Positions 1,521 through 34,824 of a stretch of DNA of 34,824 nt are shown here, piece after piece (within the stretch, counting starts at the first letter, position 1; each line of letters begins with the position of its first letter). A model generated the notes under the pieces. That model made no database searches, had not been told where the DNA came from, and worked only from the letters and a program-made list of their open reading frames with translations. A program made the position numbers and the translations under genes. Location: contig JANNXB010000427.1 of NCBI GenBank assembly GCA_031409355.1, forward strand, positions 1-34,824, written 5' to 3'. This DNA is from Betaproteobacteria bacterium (lineage in GTDB: Bacteria; Pseudomonadota; Gammaproteobacteria; Burkholderiales; SG8-39).

Positions 1521-2461
1521 AGTACGTTTTTCCATTCACCCTGGCATTGCTTTCGGTTTCTGCTCAAGCGCAAACCTGGCCCTCCAAGCCCGTGCGCGTC
1601 GTCGTCGCTTTCGCCCCCGGCGGCTCGCTCGACTTTGTCACCCGCATCCTGAGCGAACGGCTGTCGCAGGACCTTGGCCAGACCTTCCTGGTGGAGAACC
1701 GCGCCGGCGCCAACGGCAACGTCGGCGCCGACCTCGTCGCCAAGCTGCCGGGCGACGGCTACGCCATCCTCGCCTCCGCCGACGCTCTGACTTCCGGCGC
1801 GCAGCTGTACAAGCTGAATTACGACCCGATGAAGGACCTCGTGCCGGTGATTCAGTTCACGCGCCAGCCGCTGGTGCTGGCGGTGCACCCGTCGCTGAAT
1901 GTCGGCACGGTAGCTGAGCTCATCGCGCTGGCGAAGACCAAGCCGGGGATGGGCTTCGCCACTTCCGGCGCGGGCTCGGGCCAGCATATGGCCGGCGAAT
2001 GGCTCGCCAAGCTTGCCGGCGTCAAACTCACGCACGTTCCCTACAAGGGCGGGGGCCAGGCGATCACCGACCTGCTCGCCGGACAGGTGCAGATCGGTTC
2101 GCTCGGCTCCACGCCGGTGATGCCGCACCACAAGTCCGGAAAACTGAAGATCATCGCCCAGACCACCGCCACCCGCTCACCCTCGCTGCCGGAAGTGCCG
2201 ACCTACCAGGAAGCCGGCGTGCCCATCCTGCTCGACCAGTGGCTGGGTTTCCTCGTCCCGGCCGGCACGCCGCCCGACATCATCAAGCGCCTAAACGCGG
2301 CCACCGACAAGATCCTCGCCCAGCCCGCCATCCGCGAGCGCCTCGCGCCGCAGGGACTGGAAGCCGTCGGCGGTTCGCCCGAGCAGTTCGCGAAGCTGTA
2401 CCGGGACGACTACGAGAAGTACGGCAAGCTGGTGAAGGAACTGAACATCAGGATCGACTGA
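1514..2461 (+). CDS. Bug-family (TctC-like) tripartite tricarboxylate transporter substrate-binding protein
   Basis: Signal peptide MLKYVFPFTLALLSVSAQAQ is followed by WPSKPVRVVVAFAPGGSLDFVTR and HVPYKGGGQA, both hallmark Bug-family motifs. AGGAGG lies 8 nt upstream of the ATG. The gene overlaps the upstream stop by 7 nt. Confidence 0.85.
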   Translation: MLKYVFPFTLALLSVSAQAQTWPSKPVRVVVAFAPGGSLDFVTRILSERLSQDLGQTFLVENRAGANGNVGADLVAKLPGDGYAILASADALTSGAQLYKLNYDPMKDLVPVIQFTRQPLVLAVHPSLNVGTVAELIALAKTKPGMGFATSGAGSGQHMAGEWLAKLAGVKLTHVPYKGGGQAITDLLAGQVQIGSLGSTPVMPHHKSGKLKIIAQTTATRSPSLPEVPTYQEAGVPILLDQWLGFLVPAGTPPDIIKRLNAATDKILAQPAIRERLAPQGLEAVGGSPEQFAKLYRDDYEKYGKLVKELNIRID

Positions 2462-2475
2462 CCAAGGGTGATGCC

Positions 2476-3564
2476 ATGAAGAAAACGCGGCAACCGCGGG
2501 TCGTGAAAGGCATGCCCAGCGTCGAGCTGAGCCGCAAGGAATTTGTAATGCGCTTCCATCAGCGGCACGACGACCCGGCCTTCGACGCGGTCGCCAAGCC
2601 GCTGGACGCGGTAACCGAGGTGGCCTGGAAGAATTACATCGAGTATCACAAGAGCCCGAACACCCGCAAAGCGGGCAGCGCCTTTGCCGTTCCCTCATTC
2701 GAACTCCCGCGCGAGTGGCTCGAGACTCGCGCACGCATCCAGGTGGCGGAGCGCGCCCAGCGGCGCAAGGGCGGCGTCTCCCGGATCCTCGTCATCAGCG
2801 GCTCGGCGCGCAGCGACCAGACCTGTCCGGGGGAGATGTCCAAGACCTACCGGCTGGCGAAGATTGCCCAGCGGACCATCGAGTCGGCGGGACGCTTCGA
2901 AGTGGATTTCCTCGACCTTTCGCTGCTCGCCTCCGAGTACGGCCGCGTCATCTATCCCTGCAAGGCCTGCGTCTCCACCGCGCAGCCGCTTTGCCACTGG
3001 CCCTGCTCCTGCTACCCCAACCACGCCCTCGGCCAGACCCAGGACTGGATGAATGAGCTCTACCCGCGCTGGGTCGCTGCCCACGGCGTGATGATCCTCA
3101 CGCCGGTGAACTGGTATCAAGTGCCATCGGTGCTCAAGCTGATGATCGACCGCCTGGTCTGCGCCGACGGCGGCAATCCCGACCAGACAACCACGCGCGG
3201 CAAGAATCCGAAACTCGCCAAGGAACTGGAACTGAAGGGCTGGGACTACCCCAAGCACCTCGCCGGCCGTGCGTTCGCCGTCGCAGTGCACGGCGACGCG
3301 GAAGGCGTCGACAATGTCCGCACCGCCTTATGCGATTGGCTCACCACGATGGGACTGGTGCGAGCCGGCGAATCCGGCGCCGTGGGGCGCTATCTCGGCT
3401 ACATGGAACCCTACGCCACCAGCCACGATGCCCTGGACCGCGACACCGCGTTGCAGGAGGAAGTCCGCAATGCCGCGCGCAGCCTGGTCGAAACCGTGCG
3501 GCAGATCAGACGTGGGAAGCTGAAGCAGCCGGATGCAGGGCAATCTACTCCGCGCCAGAAGTAG
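2476..3564 (+). CDS. flavodoxin-fold NAD(P)H-dependent FMN reductase-like protein with Cys-rich insertion (iron-sulfur flavoprotein-like)
   Basis: The start was chosen at the internal ATG (MKKTRQ) because the 5' part of the 1999..3564 ORF overlaps the Bug gene and is Arg/Pro-rich shadow sequence. ILVISGSARSDQTCPGEMSKT is the FMN_red-type N-terminus. The Cys cluster is YPCKACVSTAQPLCHWPCSC. ILTPVNWYQVPSVLKLMIDR matches the family. Confidence 0.6.
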   Translation: MKKTRQPRVVKGMPSVELSRKEFVMRFHQRHDDPAFDAVAKPLDAVTEVAWKNYIEYHKSPNTRKAGSAFAVPSFELPREWLETRARIQVAERAQRRKGGVSRILVISGSARSDQTCPGEMSKTYRLAKIAQRTIESAGRFEVDFLDLSLLASEYGRVIYPCKACVSTAQPLCHWPCSCYPNHALGQTQDWMNELYPRWVAAHGVMILTPVNWYQVPSVLKLMIDRLVCADGGNPDQTTTRGKNPKLAKELELKGWDYPKHLAGRAFAVAVHGDAEGVDNVRTALCDWLTTMGLVRAGESGAVGRYLGYMEPYATSHDALDRDTALQEEVRNAARSLVETVRQIRRGKLKQPDAGQSTPRQK

Positions 3565-25057: not shown

Positions 25058-25127
25058 ATTGCACCAGGCGGTGCGCACCAGTGTGCCGTGTTTTATCCCG
25101 AAGTCTTGCGCAAAGAACCTCACCGCC

Positions 25128-26392
<1,265 letters not shown>

Positions 26393-26396
<4 letters not shown>

Positions 26397-28656: not shown

Positions 28657-29826
28657 TTGTCTGCATACGATGGCCCCATCCGCGCGCCCCTGCCTTCCGG
28701 CATCCGTTCCCGCCGAGTCGCGGGTGTCAACGGCCTCGACATGCACGTGCTGGAGGCGGGCGACCCCTCCGGCGCACGGCCCTTGGTCCTGCTGCTGCAC
28801 GGCTTTCCGGAACTCGCCTACAGCTGGAGAAAGGTGATGCCGCCGCTTGCCGAGGCCGGGTACCACGTGATCGCCCCCGACCAAAGGGGCTATGGCCGGA
28901 CCACCGGCTGGGACGACCGCTACGACGGAGATCTCGGCTCCTTCTGCATGCTCAACCTGGTGAGGGACGCCCTGGGCCTGGTTTCGGCGCTCGGCTATCG
29001 CTCGGTGGCCGGCGTGGTGGGGCACGACTTCGGCTCGCCGGTCGCGGCCTGGTGCGCGCTTGTCCGCCCGGATGTGTTCCGCTCCGTTGCGCTGATGAGC
29101 TCCCCGTTCGCCGGCCCGCCGGCCATCCCGTTCAACACGCAGGGCGTCGTGCAGCCCGCCTCCGCCGACCCGATTCACGCTGACCTCAGGGCCCTCGAAC
29201 CGCCACGGAAGCACTACCAGTGGTACTACTCAACGCACGGGGCCGATGCCGAGATGCGCCACTGCCCGCAGGGGCTCCACGCTTTCCTGCGCGCCTATTA
29301 CCACTGCAAGAGCGCGGACTGGAAGCAGAACGCACCGGTCGCACTTGAATCCTGGAGCGCGCGCGAACTCGAAAAACTGCCGCGCTACTACGTGATGGAC
29401 CTCGGCCTGGGGATGGCGCAGACCGTCGCTCCGCTCATGCCCTCAGACGAGGAAATCGCGGCGTGCAAATGGCTGCCCGACGCGGAACTCGCGGTCTACA
29501 GCGCCGAGTACGGCCGCACGGGGTTCCAGGGCGGCCTCCAATGGTACCGGTGCAGGACGAGCGGCCTGTTCAATGCCGGGATGGAGGTATTCGCCGGACG
29601 CACGATCGATGTGCCGTCGTGCTTCATCGCCGGGCGCAGCGACTGGGGCACCTACCAGAAGCCGGGGGATTTCGAGAGCATGCAGGCTGCGGCGTGCACT
29701 CGCATGACGGGCATCCACCTAGTCGAAGGCGCCGGGCACTGGGTGCAGCAGGAACAACCCGGGGAAGTCACCCGCCTGCTGGCGGGATTCCTGTCGGCGG
29801 AGCGGGGTACCTCCTCAGCCCGCTGA
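28657..29826 (+). CDS. alpha/beta hydrolase, epoxide-hydrolase-like
   Basis: LLLHGFPELAYSWRKVMP (HGxP oxyanion motif), nucleophile elbow GHDFGSPVA, C-terminal GAGHWVQQEQP. The TTG start at 28657 has GAGG 7 nt upstream. Later ATGs would remove conserved sequence. Confidence 0.75.
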   Translation: MSAYDGPIRAPLPSGIRSRRVAGVNGLDMHVLEAGDPSGARPLVLLLHGFPELAYSWRKVMPPLAEAGYHVIAPDQRGYGRTTGWDDRYDGDLGSFCMLNLVRDALGLVSALGYRSVAGVVGHDFGSPVAAWCALVRPDVFRSVALMSSPFAGPPAIPFNTQGVVQPASADPIHADLRALEPPRKHYQWYYSTHGADAEMRHCPQGLHAFLRAYYHCKSADWKQNAPVALESWSARELEKLPRYYVMDLGLGMAQTVAPLMPSDEEIAACKWLPDAELAVYSAEYGRTGFQGGLQWYRCRTSGLFNAGMEVFAGRTIDVPSCFIAGRSDWGTYQKPGDFESMQAAACTRMTGIHLVEGAGHWVQQEQPGEVTRLLAGFLSAERGTSSAR

Positions 29827-30993
29827 GGCCGCCCGGGAACGCGCCCCGGCCTGCCGGGGCGGGGCGTCGTCCACCACAAGCCCGGCCTCCGGGAGGATGA
29901 CCTCGCGCAGCACGCGCGTCATGAAATAGGGCTTGCCCGGGCCGGCGGCCTCGACCTCGACGTGCTCGAACTTGAACGCCCGCTCGAGCGTGCGCATCAC
30001 GCGGTCGATCGGCTTGCCCGCCTGGGTGGCGCTGGTGAAATACACGCCGCGCAGCATCAGCGGCTGGTAGTCCACGTGGGTGGAAAACCCGAGGCCGATC
30101 ATTTCCCCCACCAGCGGCCCGATTGCGTGGAACTGCTGCGGAAACCGGTAGATCGATGCGCGCCGCACGGGATCCGGCTCCTGCTCGAGGCGGCCCAGCA
30201 TTTCCGCGTAAAGCCTCTGCTGGAGCACCGCAAAGTCGGCGGCGTAGTTCCTCGAGGTTTCCATCGGGTCGACCCCGAAGTCGAAGGTCGTCCCCCAGAC
30301 CTGCTCGCGGGCCGTGTCGTCCATGGTGCCGAAGAACTCGGCAAATCCGGCGAGCAGGTCCATCTTGGTGACGAGGAGGTAGACGGGGAAACGCGTGCCC
30401 AGGCCGGCATACAGTTCGGCAAGGCGCATGCGCACATGCGCCGCGAACTGCTGCCGCTCCGGCTTGGTCCAGAGCAGGAGGTCGGTGACGCTCACCGTGA
30501 TTATCGCGCCGCTTACAGGACGTCCCGGACGGAATCGCCGGACCAGGCCGAGGAAACCGTGCCAGGCGGCGCTGCCCGTCAGCACGTCCCTGTGGTTCTT
30601 GGTTTCGTGGGCCACATAGCGGCCGGCGATGTCGAGGAATACCGCGGCGCCGGTAAACCACCACTCGCAGTAGCGCGACCCGCCAACCCCGGTCACCTGC
30701 GGCGGCCCGTCGCCGGCGTCGCGGGCGAGGCCCAGCCCGGAGTTCTTAAGCACGGTCGAGTTGCCGGAGCCGGGCGCGCCGATGACCACATACCAGGGCA
30801 GTTCATGCACGGATTTGCCCGCGCCCTCGAGGGCCGCGACGGTGGATTCGAACCGCTCGCGCAACGCCGCGATGTTCGCGGCCGCCGGGTCGTCGGGCGC
30901 GACCTGGGGGCCGAGATCGACCATCTGCCGGAACAGTTCCGCGCCGTCGCTGCGCCTGCGCGCCGGGTCAACCTTATCCTGGGGCGTGCTCAT
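29815..30993 (-). CDS. TssM/IcmF-like protein consisting only of the cytoplasmic P-loop NTPase plus ImcF-related N-terminal region. It has no transmembrane helices and no periplasmic domain, and its Walker A is GAPGSGNST
   Basis: ELPWYVVIGAPGSGNSTVLKNSGL, WWFTGAAVFLDIAGRY, RPVSGAIITVSVTDLL, FPVYLLVTKMDLLAGFAEFF, EQVWGTTF, IYRFPQQF and LRGVYFTSATQAGKPID are the diagnostic TssM cytoplasmic-domain motifs. ATG 30993 overlaps the tssL-like stop (ATGA). The ORF stops 18 codons after the ...VILPEAGLVV motif, the point where I recall TM3 following in full-length TssM. The 5' part of the 675-aa ORF is shadow over the upstream gene. Confidence 0.8.
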   Translation of the reverse strand: MSTPQDKVDPARRRSDGAELFRQMVDLGPQVAPDDPAAANIAALRERFESTVAALEGAGKSVHELPWYVVIGAPGSGNSTVLKNSGLGLARDAGDGPPQVTGVGGSRYCEWWFTGAAVFLDIAGRYVAHETKNHRDVLTGSAAWHGFLGLVRRFRPGRPVSGAIITVSVTDLLLWTKPERQQFAAHVRMRLAELYAGLGTRFPVYLLVTKMDLLAGFAEFFGTMDDTAREQVWGTTFDFGVDPMETSRNYAADFAVLQQRLYAEMLGRLEQEPDPVRRASIYRFPQQFHAIGPLVGEMIGLGFSTHVDYQPLMLRGVYFTSATQAGKPIDRVMRTLERAFKFEHVEVEAAGPGKPYFMTRVLREVILPEAGLVVDDAPPRQAGARSRAASAG

Positions 30994-32555
30994 GGTTTCG
31001 ATCCGAGGATGATCACCACGCGCCGGTTCCGGGCGCGATTCTGTTCCGTGTCGTTGGGCGCGACGGGGTCGGCTTCCGCCGCGCCTTCGCTCGCAACCCG
31101 CTGCGGCTGGCTCAGTCTTGCCGCGAGCACCTTTGCGGCCGACTGCGCCCGAGCCGCGCTGAGTTCGAGGTTGGAGGCGAACACCGCGGAATTGACCGGC
31201 AGGCTGTCGGAGTAGCCCCTCACCAGGATCGTGCCGGGAACGCGTTCGAGCGCTTCGCCGACTTTCCCGAGGACCGGATCCATCTGCGCGCCATGCTCGA
31301 CGCGGCCCGAGCCGAACTGCTGCGCGTCGCGAAAGGCGACGATGCTGCGGCCGGCGTCCTCGCCCAACACGATGAGTCCGCCCCGGATTTCGGCAGCAAG
31401 CGCTGCTTCGAGCAGCTTGTGCGGCGTAGCGGCCGGCGCCGCCGGGACGACCGGCGGGGCGACCTCCGCCTTGGGAGCGGCAACCGCGAGCGGCGCCGCT
31501 GCGGGCGCTTCCGCTTTTGGCGCGATGACTGCGCTTGCCGCGGCCGCAGGCGGCGGCGGCGGCTGCATGGTCCGGTATCCGACCACTGCCGCCAGCAGTA
31601 CCGCAACTGCACCGCCGCCGGCGAGCCACGGGAACCCCCCGCGCGATGCCGCCCGTGCGGCGGGTTTCGAGACGGCGGCGATTGCTTGCTGTTTCATCCC
31701 TCGCCAGCGTGCCGAAAGTCCATCTGCCGGACGGGGCCTGCGGCGTGTCACCAGTGCGTGCAGGTCGGCGCGAATCTGGTCGAGCTGCTGCTGCCCTCCC
31801 TCCGTGCCCCGATAGCGCCCTTCGAACCCGAGCGCAAGGCACACATACATCAATTCGAGCAGGTCGGCGTTGTCCTCGGGCTTCTCGGACATGGCCGCCA
31901 ACAGCGTGAAAAACTCGTCGCTCCCGGTATTCTCGCCGCGAAGGTTCTCGAGCAACCCATGCTTCTGCCAGTCACGCCCCCACTCCGTGGATGAAGCGGC
32001 GTCGTCGGCCAGGCAACACAACGCGTAGACCGAGGCCTCGAGGATTTCACCCGGCGTCTGCGCTTTGCTGGCCCCCGCCTCGAAAGCCTCGATCAAATCC
32101 TGGAGCGTTTCCTTGAGCAGCGCCGGGTCGGGATGGTTTTTCGCCGCCCGGATCTGGGGCACTGCACTTAGGACGGGATTCGCGAACGCAATGAGCGTAT
32201 TGAGACCGCCCAGCGCGGCCAGGTTGGCCTGCAGCGCTTCGGGCAGCGCCCGGGGCGCAAACGGATTGGCGCGCCGCCGTGCGCCGCGGCCGGCGATTGT
32301 GGCGTCGGGGTCGAAGTCCGTGAGCGGTCCCGAGAACGTCGCGTCCGGGTCCTCGCCTCTGCGCGGCGCCGGCTTTAGGGTGTCCTCGGGATCCTGGTCA
32401 CCCATGCGCATCAACGCGGCCATGGGCCCGCTGAGCGTCGCATCGGGATCCATCGCCGCCAGCGGACCCGTGACGGTCGCGTCCGGGTCCGTTTCGGGCA
32501 CGGCGCTGCGACCCGGCGCTTGCGGGTCAATGGGCTTGTCGCGGTTGTCACTCAT
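30990..32555 (-). CDS. TssL/DotU-family protein, long form with C-terminal OmpA/MotB-like peptidoglycan-binding domain and an N-terminal extension carrying five DP[DE]xT repeats
   Basis: DotU core: ASVYALCCLADDAASSTEWGRDW..LL......GSDEFFTLL......DLLELMYVCLALGFEGRYR. A single TM follows (FPWLAGGGAVAVLLAAVVGY), then a Pro/Ala-rich linker with an APKAE repeat. The OmpA-like module has VRGYSDSLP, SNLELSAARA and NRARNRRVVIIL. Confidence 0.8.
   Translation of the reverse strand: MSDNRDKPIDPQAPGRSAVPETDPDATVTGPLAAMDPDATLSGPMAALMRMGDQDPEDTLKPAPRRGEDPDATFSGPLTDFDPDATIAGRGARRRANPFAPRALPEALQANLAALGGLNTLIAFANPVLSAVPQIRAAKNHPDPALLKETLQDLIEAFEAGASKAQTPGEILEASVYALCCLADDAASSTEWGRDWQKHGLLENLRGENTGSDEFFTLLAAMSEKPEDNADLLELMYVCLALGFEGRYRGTEGGQQQLDQIRADLHALVTRRRPRPADGLSARWRGMKQQAIAAVSKPAARAASRGGFPWLAGGGAVAVLLAAVVGYRTMQPPPPPAAAASAVIAPKAEAPAAAPLAVAAPKAEVAPPVVPAAPAATPHKLLEAALAAEIRGGLIVLGEDAGRSIVAFRDAQQFGSGRVEHGAQMDPVLGKVGEALERVPGTILVRGYSDSLPVNSAVFASNLELSAARAQSAAKVLAARLSQPQRVASEGAAEADPVAPNDTEQNRARNRRVVIILGSKP
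32283..32489 (-). repeat. five spaced copies of an acidic Thr-containing peptide motif (DPDATV, DPDATL, DPEDTL, DPDATF, DPDATI) encoded in the 5' part of the tssL-like gene
   Basis: Read directly from translation: residues 23-27, 36-40, 55-59, 69-73 and 82-86. Three copies are followed by xGP[LM] (TGPL, SGPM, SGPL). The DNA shows the recurring unit GTCGCGTCCGGGTC/GTCGCATCGGGATC on the plus strand. Confidence 0.85.
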
Positions 32556-32632
32556 CCTGGCGCTATTCTATTGAACCGTCGGGGGTCATGAGCGGGGCAT
32601 GATGATGTTTCAAACTCGGTTCCAAGCTCAGT

Positions 32633-33226
32633 TCAAGACTCTGCGGCCGGCCGGGTCCAGGTTTCCGACCACGCCAGGACACAGCTCGAGGCCGGCTTTC
32701 CAAAGCGGTCCTGCATGAACACCTTCGCGGTCGCGGCCTCGCCGTTGACGGCGAGCTGGGCGCCGCGCGCCGGCACGAACGTGCTGTATACCCCGATCGG
32801 GCGATCCATCGCGCCCGGCGGGACGGTCAGCACGAACGGCGCCATCAGGTCCCACCAGCTCATGATGATCTCGCCGTCGTCCGACGCGATGCGTTCCTCG
32901 ACGGTGCTCAGGCAGTCCCCCGCGCGGTCGAATTCGGCGTCCATCACTGGCAGGGATTCATCGCCGAACGGCTTGTGGAGCAGCGCTTCGATCGTCCGCT
33001 GCAGGAAGCGCGTCATGCCGATGTTGTCCGAATAGACCCGCGGCCCCTTGCCAGTAAGCGCGCTCTCGATGAACAGCGCGTGACCCTGCCCCGCCGGGGA
33101 CCAGAGCACGCGCCAGTGGCTCACCCGGTCGGAAATCGTCTTGCCGCCGTCATCCGACAGCCGGATGAACGAGTTCTCGCCCGTCATGACAACGTTGCCG
33201 GGATCTACCATTCGCTGCTCAGCCAT
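32633..33226 (-). CDS. hypothetical protein (197 aa), no recognisable family
   Basis: ATG 33226 is preceded by GGGAGGG. GC3 is high in this frame. There is no hydrophobic helix or signal peptide. The upstream part of the 378-aa ORF is Arg/Cys/Trp-rich shadow sequence. Confidence 0.6.
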   Translation of the reverse strand: MAEQRMVDPGNVVMTGENSFIRLSDDGGKTISDRVSHWRVLWSPAGQGHALFIESALTGKGPRVYSDNIGMTRFLQRTIEALLHKPFGDESLPVMDAEFDRAGDCLSTVEERIASDDGEIIMSWWDLMAPFVLTVPPGAMDRPIGVYSTFVPARGAQLAVNGEAATAKVFMQDRFGKPASSCVLAWSETWTRPAAES

Positions 33227-33305
33227 GAAGCCCTCCCTTTGGACCCGGAAGGATACCACCGCGACCCGTCGCGATGCCGGCTCCGATCGGTCGTGCAATC
33301 GAGCG

Positions 33306-34022
33306 TCAGGTGCCCGAAAGGCGCGCCCGCTGCGCCTCGCCGAGGTGACACCACTCGCCGGCCGCGAGGCCAAGCGCCTCCAGCGACAATGCGCCGATCG
33401 AAGCCCTGTGCAGCGCCACGCAATGATTGCCCGCCGCCGCCAGCATGCGCTTGACCTGGTGGTACTTGCCCTGCACGAGGACAATCTCGAGGCAGTGCGA
33501 ATCGATCCGACGGCAGCCCTCGACCGCGAGGGGCGCGGGCTCGTCGTCCAGCTGCACCCCCCCGAGCAACCGCGCGACCAGCGCGTCCGTCGCCGGCTCC
33601 TGCAAGGTCGCCAGGTACACCTTTGGCACGTGGCGCTTGGGCGAGGTGTGCGCATGGATGAACGCGCCGTCGTCTGACAGCAGCAGCAACCCGGTCGTGT
33701 CGTGGTCCAGCCGTCCCACCGGTTGCGTCTCGCGCCACGCAAACTGCTCCGGAAGCAGCGACAGTACACCCGGATGGTGGCTGGGCTTGCGCGAGCACTC
33801 GTAGCCGGGGGGCTTGTTCAGCGCGACATAGAGGTGCTCGTGGTAGGCCCACGCTTCACCGTGGACCGTGAACTCGAGGCCCTCGGCCTCGATCGGTGCG
33901 CCGATCTCGGTGGCGACCGTGCCACCGATCGCAACGGCCCCGTCGCGGATCAACGCCCGGCATCCCTTGCGCGTGCCGAAGCCCTGTGACTGGAGGATCC
34001 GGTCGAGCGTGAGTTTCCTCAT
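33306..34022 (-). CDS. rsuA: RsuA/RluB-family pseudouridine synthase (S4 domain plus catalytic domain)
   Basis: The N-terminal S4-like region is RKLTLDRILQSQGFGTRKGCRALIRDGAV. The catalytic motif is VGRLDHDTTGLLLLSDDG, with KVYLATL and GKYHQVKRM. Confidence 0.8.
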   Translation of the reverse strand: MRKLTLDRILQSQGFGTRKGCRALIRDGAVAIGGTVATEIGAPIEAEGLEFTVHGEAWAYHEHLYVALNKPPGYECSRKPSHHPGVLSLLPEQFAWRETQPVGRLDHDTTGLLLLSDDGAFIHAHTSPKRHVPKVYLATLQEPATDALVARLLGGVQLDDEPAPLAVEGCRRIDSHCLEIVLVQGKYHQVKRMLAAAGNHCVALHRASIGALSLEALGLAAGEWCHLGEAQRARLSGT

Positions 34023-34047
34023 GCGTCGCCGGTGCGGCGCGCGGCCC

Positions 34048-34824
34048 TTACGACGCTGGCCGCAGGACGATCACGACCCGGCGGTTCTTGGCGCGGTTCC
34101 CGGCCGTGTCGCTGGGCGCCACCTGCTGCGAATCGCCGGCCCCTTCGCCTTTGACGCGCTTGGGATCGCGCAGCTTGCCCGCGATCAGCTTCGCCACGGA
34201 TTCGCCGCGTGCCGCGGACAGCTCCTGGTTCGAGGGGAACTTCGGGTTGCTGCTCGGTTTCGCGTCGGCGTGCCCGGTGACGACTATCGATCCCGGCGCC
34301 TTGTCCAGCGCGGCGGCGATTCCGAGGATGGCCGGACGCAGCGGCGCCTCGATGTCCACGCCGCCCGAATGGAACTGGTTGGCGCTGCGCAGCGTGATGG
34401 TGGTCGCCCCGCGTTCTTCGGCAACCGCAATCACTCCGCGCTTGATGTCGTCCGCCAGCAGGGCCTTAACGCTCACTGCGCTGGCGGACGCCGCGGGCGC
34501 CGCGGGAGGCGTCACAGCGGGCGCCACAGCAGGCGCCGGCGCGACCGCCACGGCCGGCTTGGGTGCCTCAGGTGCGGGAGGTTTCCCGCCGCCAAACACG
34601 ATATACAGCGCCACCGCGAGCACAACCGCCCCGCCCGCGATCATTGGCATGCGCGAGGTGTCGGCGGATACGGGCGTCGCAAGCACGGCCGCAGCGACAG
34701 CGGGCGCGACAGCAGCGACCACCGTCGGCGGAGCGGCCGTTGGCGGCACCGCAGCCGGTTCAGGTACGGGTTCCGCCGGCTGGGCGCCGATTACCGTCGC
34801 GTCGGGATCATCGTCCCGCTGGAA
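34048..34824 (-). CDS. DPDAT-motif / single-TM / OmpA-MotB-like peptidoglycan-binding protein, paralogous to the C-terminal half of the tssL-like gene (5' end outside the window)
   Basis: The frame stays open to the window edge (FQRDDDPDATVIGAQP...). TM MPMIAGGAVVLAVALYIVFGG, then a Pro/Ala linker. The OmpA-like module (VTGHADAKP, SNQELSAARG, NRAKNRRVVIVL) aligns along its length with residues about 390-520 of the 30990..32555 product. Confidence 0.75.
   Translation of the reverse strand, partial: FQRDDDPDATVIGAQPAEPVPEPAAVPPTAAPPTVVAAVAPAVAAAVLATPVSADTSRMPMIAGGAVVLAVALYIVFGGGKPPAPEAPKPAVAVAPAPAVAPAVTPPAAPAASASAVSVKALLADDIKRGVIAVAEERGATTITLRSANQFHSGGVDIEAPLRPAILGIAAALDKAPGSIVVTGHADAKPSSNPKFPSNQELSAARGESVAKLIAGKLRDPKRVKGEGAGDSQQVAPSDTAGNRAKNRRVVIVLRPAS

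Follow-up and report, generated by a model that had tools for sequence, protein, structure and literature searches.

The locus

Contig JANNXB010000427.1 of the Betaproteobacteria bacterium assembly GCA_031409355.1 (GTDB order Burkholderiales, SG8-39) carries two overlapping genes, here called tssL and tssM-N, that are related to type VI secretion system (T6SS) membrane-complex genes. The whole stretch of DNA analysed, 34,824 nucleotides from position 1 on the forward strand, is referred to as the window. A sequence-only reading of the window had recognised two T6SS membrane-complex genes joined by an ATGA overlap. Both points hold, since Pfam assigns DotU and OmpA domains to one product and an IcmF-related_N domain to the other, and the overlap can be read directly in the DNA. 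The features of the locus are the following (TM, transmembrane).

30990..32555, minus strand: tssL-like gene, 521 amino acids (aa), with acidic/Pro-rich tail, DotU domain, one TM helix and OmpA/MotB-like domain
29815..30993, minus strand: tssM-N gene, 392 aa, cytoplasmic GTPase-like / IcmF-related_N domain only
30990..30993, minus strand: ATGA overlap of the tssL stop and the tssM-N start, read directly as ...AAA CCA TGA / ATG AGC ACG
32295..32489, minus strand: DPDAT-type motif copies in the TssL tail, from a motif scan
31569..32195, minus strand: DotU domain of the TssL cytoplasmic region, TM helix included, Pfam residues 121-329
31575..31640, minus strand: TssL TM helix, residues 306-327, Kyte-Doolittle peak 1.89
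31008..31412, minus strand: periplasmic OmpA/MotB-like peptidoglycan-binding domain of the type-VI type, TIGR03350, residues 382-516
30754..30780, minus strand: degenerate P-loop G72-A-P-G-S-G-N78-S-T80, with Asn at the Walker A lysine position
34048..34824, minus strand: OmpA2, a TssL-derived paralogue without DotU, Pfam OmpA E=1.2e-10, its 5' end cut by the window edge

Both products can be recognised beyond doubt as TssL and TssM, yet the membrane and periplasmic traits that define TssM are missing, and so is the T6SS context.

A TssM reduced to its cytoplasmic domain

As the sequence-only reading had proposed, the 392-aa product of tssM-N comprises the cytoplasmic region of TssM only. Pfam IcmF-related_N (PF14331) covers residues 141-383 (E=4e-73), and its alignment to the NCBIfam TssM model TIGR03348 spans model positions 71-431 of 1168, with a score of 378.1 bits, just below the curated cutoff of 388.15. 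In an exhaustive search, full-length TssMs of ~1170 aa matched it via their residues ~67-440, the loop between TM2 and TM3, and the cytoplasmic domains of TssM-N and canonical TssMs share 40-50% identity. No segment of TM grade was found in the 392-aa protein (Kyte-Doolittle maximum 1.25), and Pfam detected neither PF06761 nor PF06744, the periplasmic, TssJ-contacting families, confirming that TM3 and the periplasmic domain are absent. The N-terminal 90 residues and the periplasmic part of TssM, used as tblastn probes, had no match in the window or in any locus with a TssM of this short type, and tblastn found no remnant of the periplasmic domain downstream of tssM-N. The N-terminal TM1-2 hairpin is also absent, but its loss had been ascribed to the fusion of the start codon onto the tssL stop, and this overlap is not the cause, because ~650-aa relatives described below keep the hairpin with an equal 4-nt overlap. 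Since TssM-N lacks every part that crosses the membrane, lies in the periplasm or reaches TssJ and the outer membrane, the pair cannot be a secretion channel, in line with the earlier statement that no canonical trans-envelope channel could form.

Of the TRAFAC-class motifs, G3 (D121-I-A-G-R) and G4 (T209-K-M-D) are kept, and G1 lacks its lysine, the P-loop reading GAPGSGNST with Asn78 in place of the Walker A lysine. We tallied this position in those 108 of the 120 best homologues that were matched by a motif regular expression. It is Asn in 37 and Ser in two of the 39 sequences of the window's clade (>=57% identity) and Lys in all 69 of the sister clade, and G3 (DxAGR) and G4 (TKxD) are kept throughout. 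Because the P-loop lysine is replaced by Asn in the window's clade, the label "NTPase" appears doubtful there. The AlphaFold2 (AF2) model of TssM-N is of good quality, with a predicted local distance difference test score (pLDDT) of 79.9 and a predicted TM-score (pTM) of 0.82. A fold search returned only weak Ras-superfamily matches (E >= 2e-4, TM-score 0.2-0.5) and a sequence search of the PDB returned none, leaving a domain without a solved homologue to lean on.

A long-form TssL with a repeated threonine motif

In the 521-aa protein, Pfam identifies DotU (PF09850) at residues 121-329 (E=3.6e-51) and OmpA (PF00691) at residues 428-511 (E=5.7e-10). The Kyte-Doolittle scan shows one TM-grade segment (residues 306-327), and the N-terminal tail of 120 residues is rich in Asp and Pro. 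Among the NCBIfam models, the protein scores above the cutoff for TIGR03349 (153.9 vs. 89.95 bits) and slightly below it for TIGR03350, "TssL long form" (129.8 vs. 139.8 bits). It also reaches 104 bits with IcmH_DotU_IVB (cutoff 50), and the T6SS DotU model scores much higher (315 bits). As it matches the PDB entries 4b62 (peptidoglycan-binding domain of Pseudomonas aeruginosa TssL1, E=5.7e-20) and 4v3i (cytoplasmic domain of Vibrio cholerae TssL), the protein is, judged by sequence, a "long-form" TssL. It does not share the situation of a T6SS membrane-complex subunit working with full-length TssM and TssJ, as its partner TssM is devoid of membrane and periplasmic parts, and Pfam scans found no TssJ among the window's open reading frames (ORFs).

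The tail contains four copies of the motif D-P-D-A-T-[VLFI]-x-G-(P/R), at Thr27, Thr40, Thr73, and Thr86, and a degenerate fifth copy, DPEDTL, at Thr59. In a six-frame translation of the whole window, D[PAD][DE]AT[VILFM] occurs five times, four times in the TssL tail and once in OmpA2. No tandem repeats were found in the tail DNA, and thus the motif is repeated at the protein level only. Most complete TssLs of all three reduced forms considered here carry two to seven copies, whereas most canonical TssLs examined have a single related copy, DxRT[IV]xxPxPGGR. We regard the tail motifs as candidate phosphothreonine docking sites for FHA domains.

Repeats of a similar kind were observed in TagH proteins encoded apart from other T6SS genes ("orphan" TagH) in metagenome-assembled genomes (MAGs) of the window's clade, termed clade A. 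These proteins (L247 6001-7611; L249 4780-6576) contain three to four EEFDA(E/D)ATMVRRPG repeats between their FHA and T6SS_FHA_C domains. These repeats share the D-x-x-T-hydrophobic motif kind with the TssL tails, which suggests that FHA domains might engage in mutual recognition or auto-recognition.

Search for further T6SS genes

The sequence-only reading had noticed no other T6SS part in the window. For the core genes this is borne out: Pfam scans of 31 candidate ORFs and a check of ORFs in the gaps revealed no T6SS gene other than the pair, and tblastn of the window with TssA, TssB, TssC, Hcp, TagJ, TssE, TssF, TssG, ClpV, and TagF from a canonical cluster, together with a TagH, was negative. 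The products of the remaining candidate ORFs have metabolic, transport, and signalling functions, and no genes of a type IV secretion system or another machine were found in the window or flanks. What the earlier reading missed is OmpA2 at 34048-34824, which lies 1.5 kb upstream of tssL and combines a DPDAT motif, a TM segment and a type-VI OmpA domain. The part of OmpA2 inside the window has one DPDATVIG copy (34792-34809), and a full-length orthologue (L001:6046-7080, 344 aa) has four motif copies, a TM segment and a TIGR03350-type domain. OmpA2 is essentially a TssL minus DotU, and it is conserved upstream of the pair in at least nine clade-A loci.

Loci were read +-10 kb around each match, and the orphan status of the pair holds for this range. 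In the 682 kb around 42 pair loci, tblastn detected no T6SS core gene. Likewise, no sheath, baseplate, Hcp or ClpV gene was detected within 10 kb of ~20 loci of the ~650-aa type, and no core gene near 57 TagH loci of the lineage, whereas the identical probes readily detected core genes around canonical TssMs. A T6SS cluster just past the window edge would have made the pair an ordinary part of it, but the flanks of the syntenic locus L001, whose TssM-N is 75% identical, hold housekeeping genes only, for 10 kb on each side.

Conservation, genomic context, and selection

A word-indexed homologue search with TssM-N gave 549 matches, and over 500 homologues have the TM-less form of 370-400 aa. Down to 53% identity, the 120 best are all 297-406 aa long and contain PF14331 alone, and none is the full-length tssM of a close relative that would mark the window's gene as a strain-specific truncation. 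Public annotations name these genes "TssM" or "ImpL". In species-representative genomes, TssM-N is found at 38 loci, all in MAGs of uncultured Burkholderiales or Betaproteobacteria. In each of the 41 related loci for which upstream DNA is available, tssM-N is directly preceded by a TssL gene, and most short-type and ~650-aa-type loci have a 4-nt NTGA junction between tssL and tssM.

The pair is found in two housekeeping contexts that are unrelated to each other. In clade A, the order is OmpA2, rsuA, a 195-aa unknown gene, tssL and tssM-N, followed by a convergent hydrolase gene; in clade B, a glyoxalase gene precedes tssL and tssM-N, and a convergent isc operon follows. The ratio of nonsynonymous to synonymous substitution rates (dN/dS) is 0.16-0.33 for tssM-N against its clade-A orthologues. 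Compared with L001, it is 0.19 for tssM-N and 0.23 for tssL, similar to the flanking genes (hydrolase 0.22, rsuA 0.14, VTT 0.27), all of these values being upper bounds because dS is near saturation. An alignment of 53 sequences contains 100 invariant columns. The clean coupled start had earlier been taken as a sign of an evolved minimal form. An evolved form, as opposed to decay, is well supported by the pairing at all 41 loci, the retained 4-nt overlap, the dN/dS values and the single clade of the short proteins in the tree described below, but the coupled start itself is ancestral.

Reduced relatives of the pair

The closest full-length TssM is 50% identical to TssM-N and belongs to a canonical cluster (tssL-tssM-tagF-tssA-B-C-hcp-tagJ-E-F-G-clpV). 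Besides the short type, two further reduced forms were found. The first is a TssM of ~630-665 aa that has TM1-2, an NTPase domain with GKT, TM3 and just ~190 residues in the periplasm (PF14331 and half of PF06761). Translational coupling links it to TssL, with TagF and TagH encoded downstream and a Guanylate_cyc+FHA protein, a Hanks kinase, and a Sel1/coiled-coil protein upstream of TssL. One such module (L037 316-7737) reads cyclase-FHA, Ser/Thr kinase, Sel1/coiled-coil TM protein, TssL with five to six DDDATVMIP repeats (as in other modules of this type), 664-aa TssM, TagF, and TagH, and modules of the same core-less type are present in L024, L034, L039, L045, L047, L053 and others. After the L037 module, SulA/ImuA-like and ImuB-like ORFs were identified by eye, and loci of the form described next have a full imuA-like / dnaE2 cassette in the equivalent place.

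The other form is a single chain of ~598 aa without any TM segment, in which a DotU cytoplasmic domain that ends right before its TM is fused to an IcmF_N domain that begins just after TM2. This DotU::IcmF_N fusion comprises 30 clusters of 592-605 aa and a few more divergent ones. Its gene sits between a Ser/Thr kinase gene and tagH, beside a cyclase-FHA gene, with no sheath or baseplate genes nearby; at L196 5391-7181 (also P0152 and P0271-P0299), the neighbours are Guanylate_cyc+FHA, a 900-aa Ser/Thr kinase with Sel1 repeats, and TagH.

In a neighbour-joining tree of the cytoplasmic domains, calculated without support values, the short clades A and B form one clade that is sister to the ~650-aa clade, and all of them branch beside the canonical L043/L058 proteins, with the nearest canonical relative lying in the complete cluster L043. 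The pair shares with the ~650-aa module and the fusion its neighbour-joining ancestry, the TssL tail motif, NTGA coupling and the lack of core genes nearby. The forms differ in their anchoring and partners. The ~650-aa form has all three TMs, periplasmic residues, and, in cis, kinase, TagF and TagH; the fusion has no membrane anchor; and the window's form is split and anchored via TssL only, with its partners, if any, in trans. Within the short family, some members have a longer C-terminus (~480 aa in L023, 9315-10763), and a 405-aa representative listed alongside it (P0121) has a hydrophobic segment at 370-393. Going by their sequences, such longer members are possible intermediates retaining TM3. 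Full-text literature searches found no description of TM-less TssM/TssL pairs, of the ~650-aa module or of the DotU::IcmF_N fusion.

Kinase, FHA, and TagH genes in the same genomes

The ~650-aa module is present, on another contig, in 14 of the 19 clade-B MAGs with the short pair, and in none of the 12 clade-A MAGs. At least five of these 12, including the window's closest relative, encode an orphan TagH (FHA + T6SS_FHA_C) on another contig. A cyclase-like FHA gene directly precedes tagH in three of those five (L247-L249) and also in L241, and no T6SS core, TssL/M, TagF or kinase gene lies within 6 kb of the clade-A orphan TagH loci.

The window's only kinase (25059-26396, plus strand) is a Hanks-type Ser/Thr kinase fused to a cyclic nucleotide monophosphate (cNMP)-binding domain and located 3.4 kb from tssM-N. 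It might act on the TssL tail. Near the pair of L001, a SAM / Guanylate_cyc / AAA_16 protein is found instead, and a cyclase lies at a distance of 5 kb. Together with the FHA-cyclase gene that constantly accompanies the reduced modules, the cNMP domain and the L001 cyclase offer a possible lead to cyclic nucleotides, which may be coincidence.

Neighbouring genes

The tssM-N gene and the convergent alpha/beta-hydrolase gene (28657-29826) overlap at their 3' ends by 12 bp (29815-29826), and an equivalent convergent overlap of 18 bp is present at L001. Between rsuA and tssL lies a gene for a 197-aa protein (32633-33226, minus strand) with no Pfam or NCBIfam match. This protein is 85-94% identical across clade-A loci, with a dN/dS of 0.04, and is conserved far above its neighbours. 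Its family has 3965 matches, nearly all of ~195 aa and every one annotated as "hypothetical". As the family is much larger and more conserved than the pair, the 197-aa (hyp195) protein was ruled out as a part of the module.

An inverted duplication of the window ends was also considered, as ORFs of 233 and 521 aa occur at each end on opposite strands (11-712 and 1999-3564 vs. 34048-34749 and 30990-32555). A search for inverted repeats was negative, and the proteins at the two ends are unrelated, one of the left-end ORFs having no family match and the other encoding an FMN reductase; the equal sizes are a coincidence. A promoter and terminator scan of 29400-34824 was uninformative.

Proposed function and alternative explanations

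Together, these results establish the pair as a two-gene module that descends from the T6SS membrane complex, is conserved and under selection, and retains only the cytoplasmic TssL-TssM sub-complex and the inner-membrane and peptidoglycan anchor of TssL. With moderate confidence, we favour the view that it is a T6SS-derived, envelope-anchored phosphothreonine/FHA scaffold or signalling platform and not a secretion machine. TssL would sit in the inner membrane, tied to the peptidoglycan via its OmpA-like domain, and its DotU domain would hold the soluble, TssM-derived GTPase-like protein, a contact that co-synthesis through translational coupling would help. A Hanks-type Ser/Thr kinase might then phosphorylate the four or five DPDAT-hydrophobic motifs of the tail, to be read by FHA proteins encoded elsewhere in related genomes, namely the T6SS-type TagH and the cyclase-like FHA protein. 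The resulting assembly could serve as an envelope-anchored phospho-signalling or scaffolding platform, with cyclic-nucleotide signalling as a lead for its output. In the window's clade, where the P-loop lysine is Asn, the TssM-derived subunit would probably be a pseudo-GTPase or adaptor and not an energiser. We infer both the physical interaction of TssL with TssM-N and the phosphorylation of the tail from the comparative data and from canonical systems. The suggestion of a repurposed NTPase/signalling module made by the sequence-only reading gains support indirectly, from the kinase, FHA, and cyclase gene sets of the sister modules and their lack of sheath and baseplate genes, and the NTPase component is doubtful for the window's clade.

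Several features of this scheme have counterparts in studied systems. TssM carries the motifs Walker A, hhhhDxxG, and (N/T)KxD, and the stable complex of TssL and TssM in the inner membrane forms independently of TssM ATPase activity (PMC3346141). As in Agrobacterium tumefaciens ImpK/ImpL, the TssL of the pair has a Thr-containing tail, a DotU domain, one TM and a peptidoglycan-binding domain, tssL precedes tssM, and TssM-N keeps hhhhDxxG and TKxD. Unlike canonical TssM, TssM-N has neither the TM1-2 hairpin nor TM3 nor the periplasmic domain of ~700 aa, and its Walker A lysine is Asn. The tail motif, in contrast to canonical TssL, is multiplied four-fold, and, unlike in a canonical T6SS, no TssJ, baseplate, sheath, Hcp, VgrG or ClpV is within reach of the pair.

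The T6SS threonine phosphorylation pathway (PpkA/PppA/Fha-TagH/TagF) offers a second comparison. In A. tumefaciens, PpkA phosphorylates TssL at Thr14 (DLPpTVVEI) and Fha binds the pThr14 form (PMC3953482), and Fha of Acidovorax citrulli binds the TssL cytoplasmic domain (bioRxiv 10.1101/2023.12.21.572528). The tail Thr motifs described here are of the same D-x-x-T-hydrophobic kind as DLPpTVVEI, the sister modules encode a Ser/Thr kinase, TagF, and TagH beside TssL/TssM, and genomes of the clade keep an orphan TagH. In contrast to that pathway, which gates assembly of the firing apparatus, no apparatus is seen here, an FHA-cyclase-like gene is added as a constant partner and no PppA phosphatase was identified.

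Some observations weigh against the proposed phosphothreonine platform. FHA domains often favour Ile, Leu or Asp at position pT+3, which is Gly in the window's clade. The AF2 model of the natural DotU::IcmF_N fusion, which served as a proxy for multimer prediction, has folded domains and a pTM of 0.59, and hence no confident inter-domain interface. The window contains no FHA or TagH gene, and TagH was seen in only five of the 12 clade-A MAGs. The window's kinase was ruled out as a conserved partner, as the pair has no kinase nearby in the other clade-A loci. Finally, the relatives are all MAGs or metagenome contigs of uncultured Burkholderiales, read over the range given above, and a TssC scan of the species-representative genomes, in which no pair-bearing MAG was among the best 80 matches, is weak evidence for the absence of a T6SS.

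These last points bear on an alternative that we consider unlikely, in which the pair serves, as an accessory or regulatory sub-unit, a canonical T6SS whose genes lie elsewhere in the genome. As a decoy or buffer, for example, it might compete with the genuine TssL/TssM for contacts to kinase, Fha or baseplate. The 40-50% identity of the cytoplasmic domains to canonical TssM, a tail motif of the same kind as in canonical TssLs, the +-10 kb reach of the core-gene searches and the presence of more than one TssL/TssM-derived module in clade-B genomes would all fit such a role. Against it, the searched surroundings of the pair, of the ~650-aa modules and of the 57 TagH genes contain no core gene, the best 80 TssC loci include none of these MAGs (weak evidence, as stated), and the TagH genes of these genomes are either orphan or part of core-less modules.

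Quite unlikely, in our view, is that the pair helps to localise or anchor another envelope machine. A precedent for homologues of TssL/TssM that work apart from a T6SS, standing alone as a pair and serving in targeting and not in secretion, comes from Legionella, where DotU and IcmF are T6SS-derived and co-opted, are polar on their own and target Dot/Icm to the poles (bioRxiv 10.1101/315721). The TssL of the pair retains membrane and peptidoglycan anchors, and its score with the IcmH/DotU model of the type IVB secretion system (T4BSS) exceeds the cutoff. However, the sequences are clearly of the T6SS type by their NCBIfam scores, with only 59 bits for IcmF_IVB against a cutoff of 1000. The Legionella IcmF is full-length and membrane-spanning and serves a T4BSS encoded alongside, whereas TssM-N lacks the TM and periplasmic parts that IcmF keeps, the fusion relatives have no membrane anchor at all, and neither the window nor the flanks contain T4SS or other machine genes.

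It is very unlikely that tssM has been split, with hairpin, TM3, and periplasmic domain supplied by separate genes elsewhere and reassembled into a working TssM. Split genes do occur and the inspection covered +-10 kb, but the N-terminal and periplasmic tblastn probes matched nothing in the window or at any short-type locus, and the ~650-aa sister form and the TM-less fusion point to progressive, stable loss and not to splitting. A decaying pseudogene remnant of a lost T6SS cluster, to which the lost Walker A lysine and the missing periplasmic and TM parts might point, is effectively refuted by intact frames of constant length in >100 clusters down to 53% identity, a dN/dS of ~0.2 equal to that of neighbouring genes, the 100 invariant columns, the fixation of Asn across the whole clade where damage would be scattered, and the lack of a periplasmic-domain remnant downstream.

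Implications

Beyond the favoured phosphothreonine platform at this locus, we tentatively propose a wider scenario, which we consider possible though not probable. A Burkholderiales lineage may have cut the T6SS down to the TssL cytoplasmic domain, the TssM GTPase-like domain and TagH, and combined these with a Hanks kinase and an FHA-cyclase-like protein for secretion-independent phosphothreonine, possibly cyclic-nucleotide, signalling. The three stable architectures would then be the ~650-aa cis module, the TM-less fusion and the split pair with a pseudo-enzyme GTPase.

The T6SS envelope channel is taken to have TssL and TssM as obligate structural parts, and to our knowledge the one established exception is that the Legionella type IVB system has co-opted them. 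Here, a large family under purifying selection keeps only the cytoplasmic halves of these proteins and is accompanied by kinase and FHA genes, not by those for sheath and baseplate. If the proposed platform is real, the TssL-TssM cytoplasmic sub-complex would be an autonomous functional unit. The family would also provide a natural minimal system in which to study the roles of the poorly understood TssM NTPase domain and of TssL phosphorylation, and annotation pipelines in which these genes are labelled "TssM" or "ImpL" would over-count T6SS in soil and freshwater Burkholderiales.

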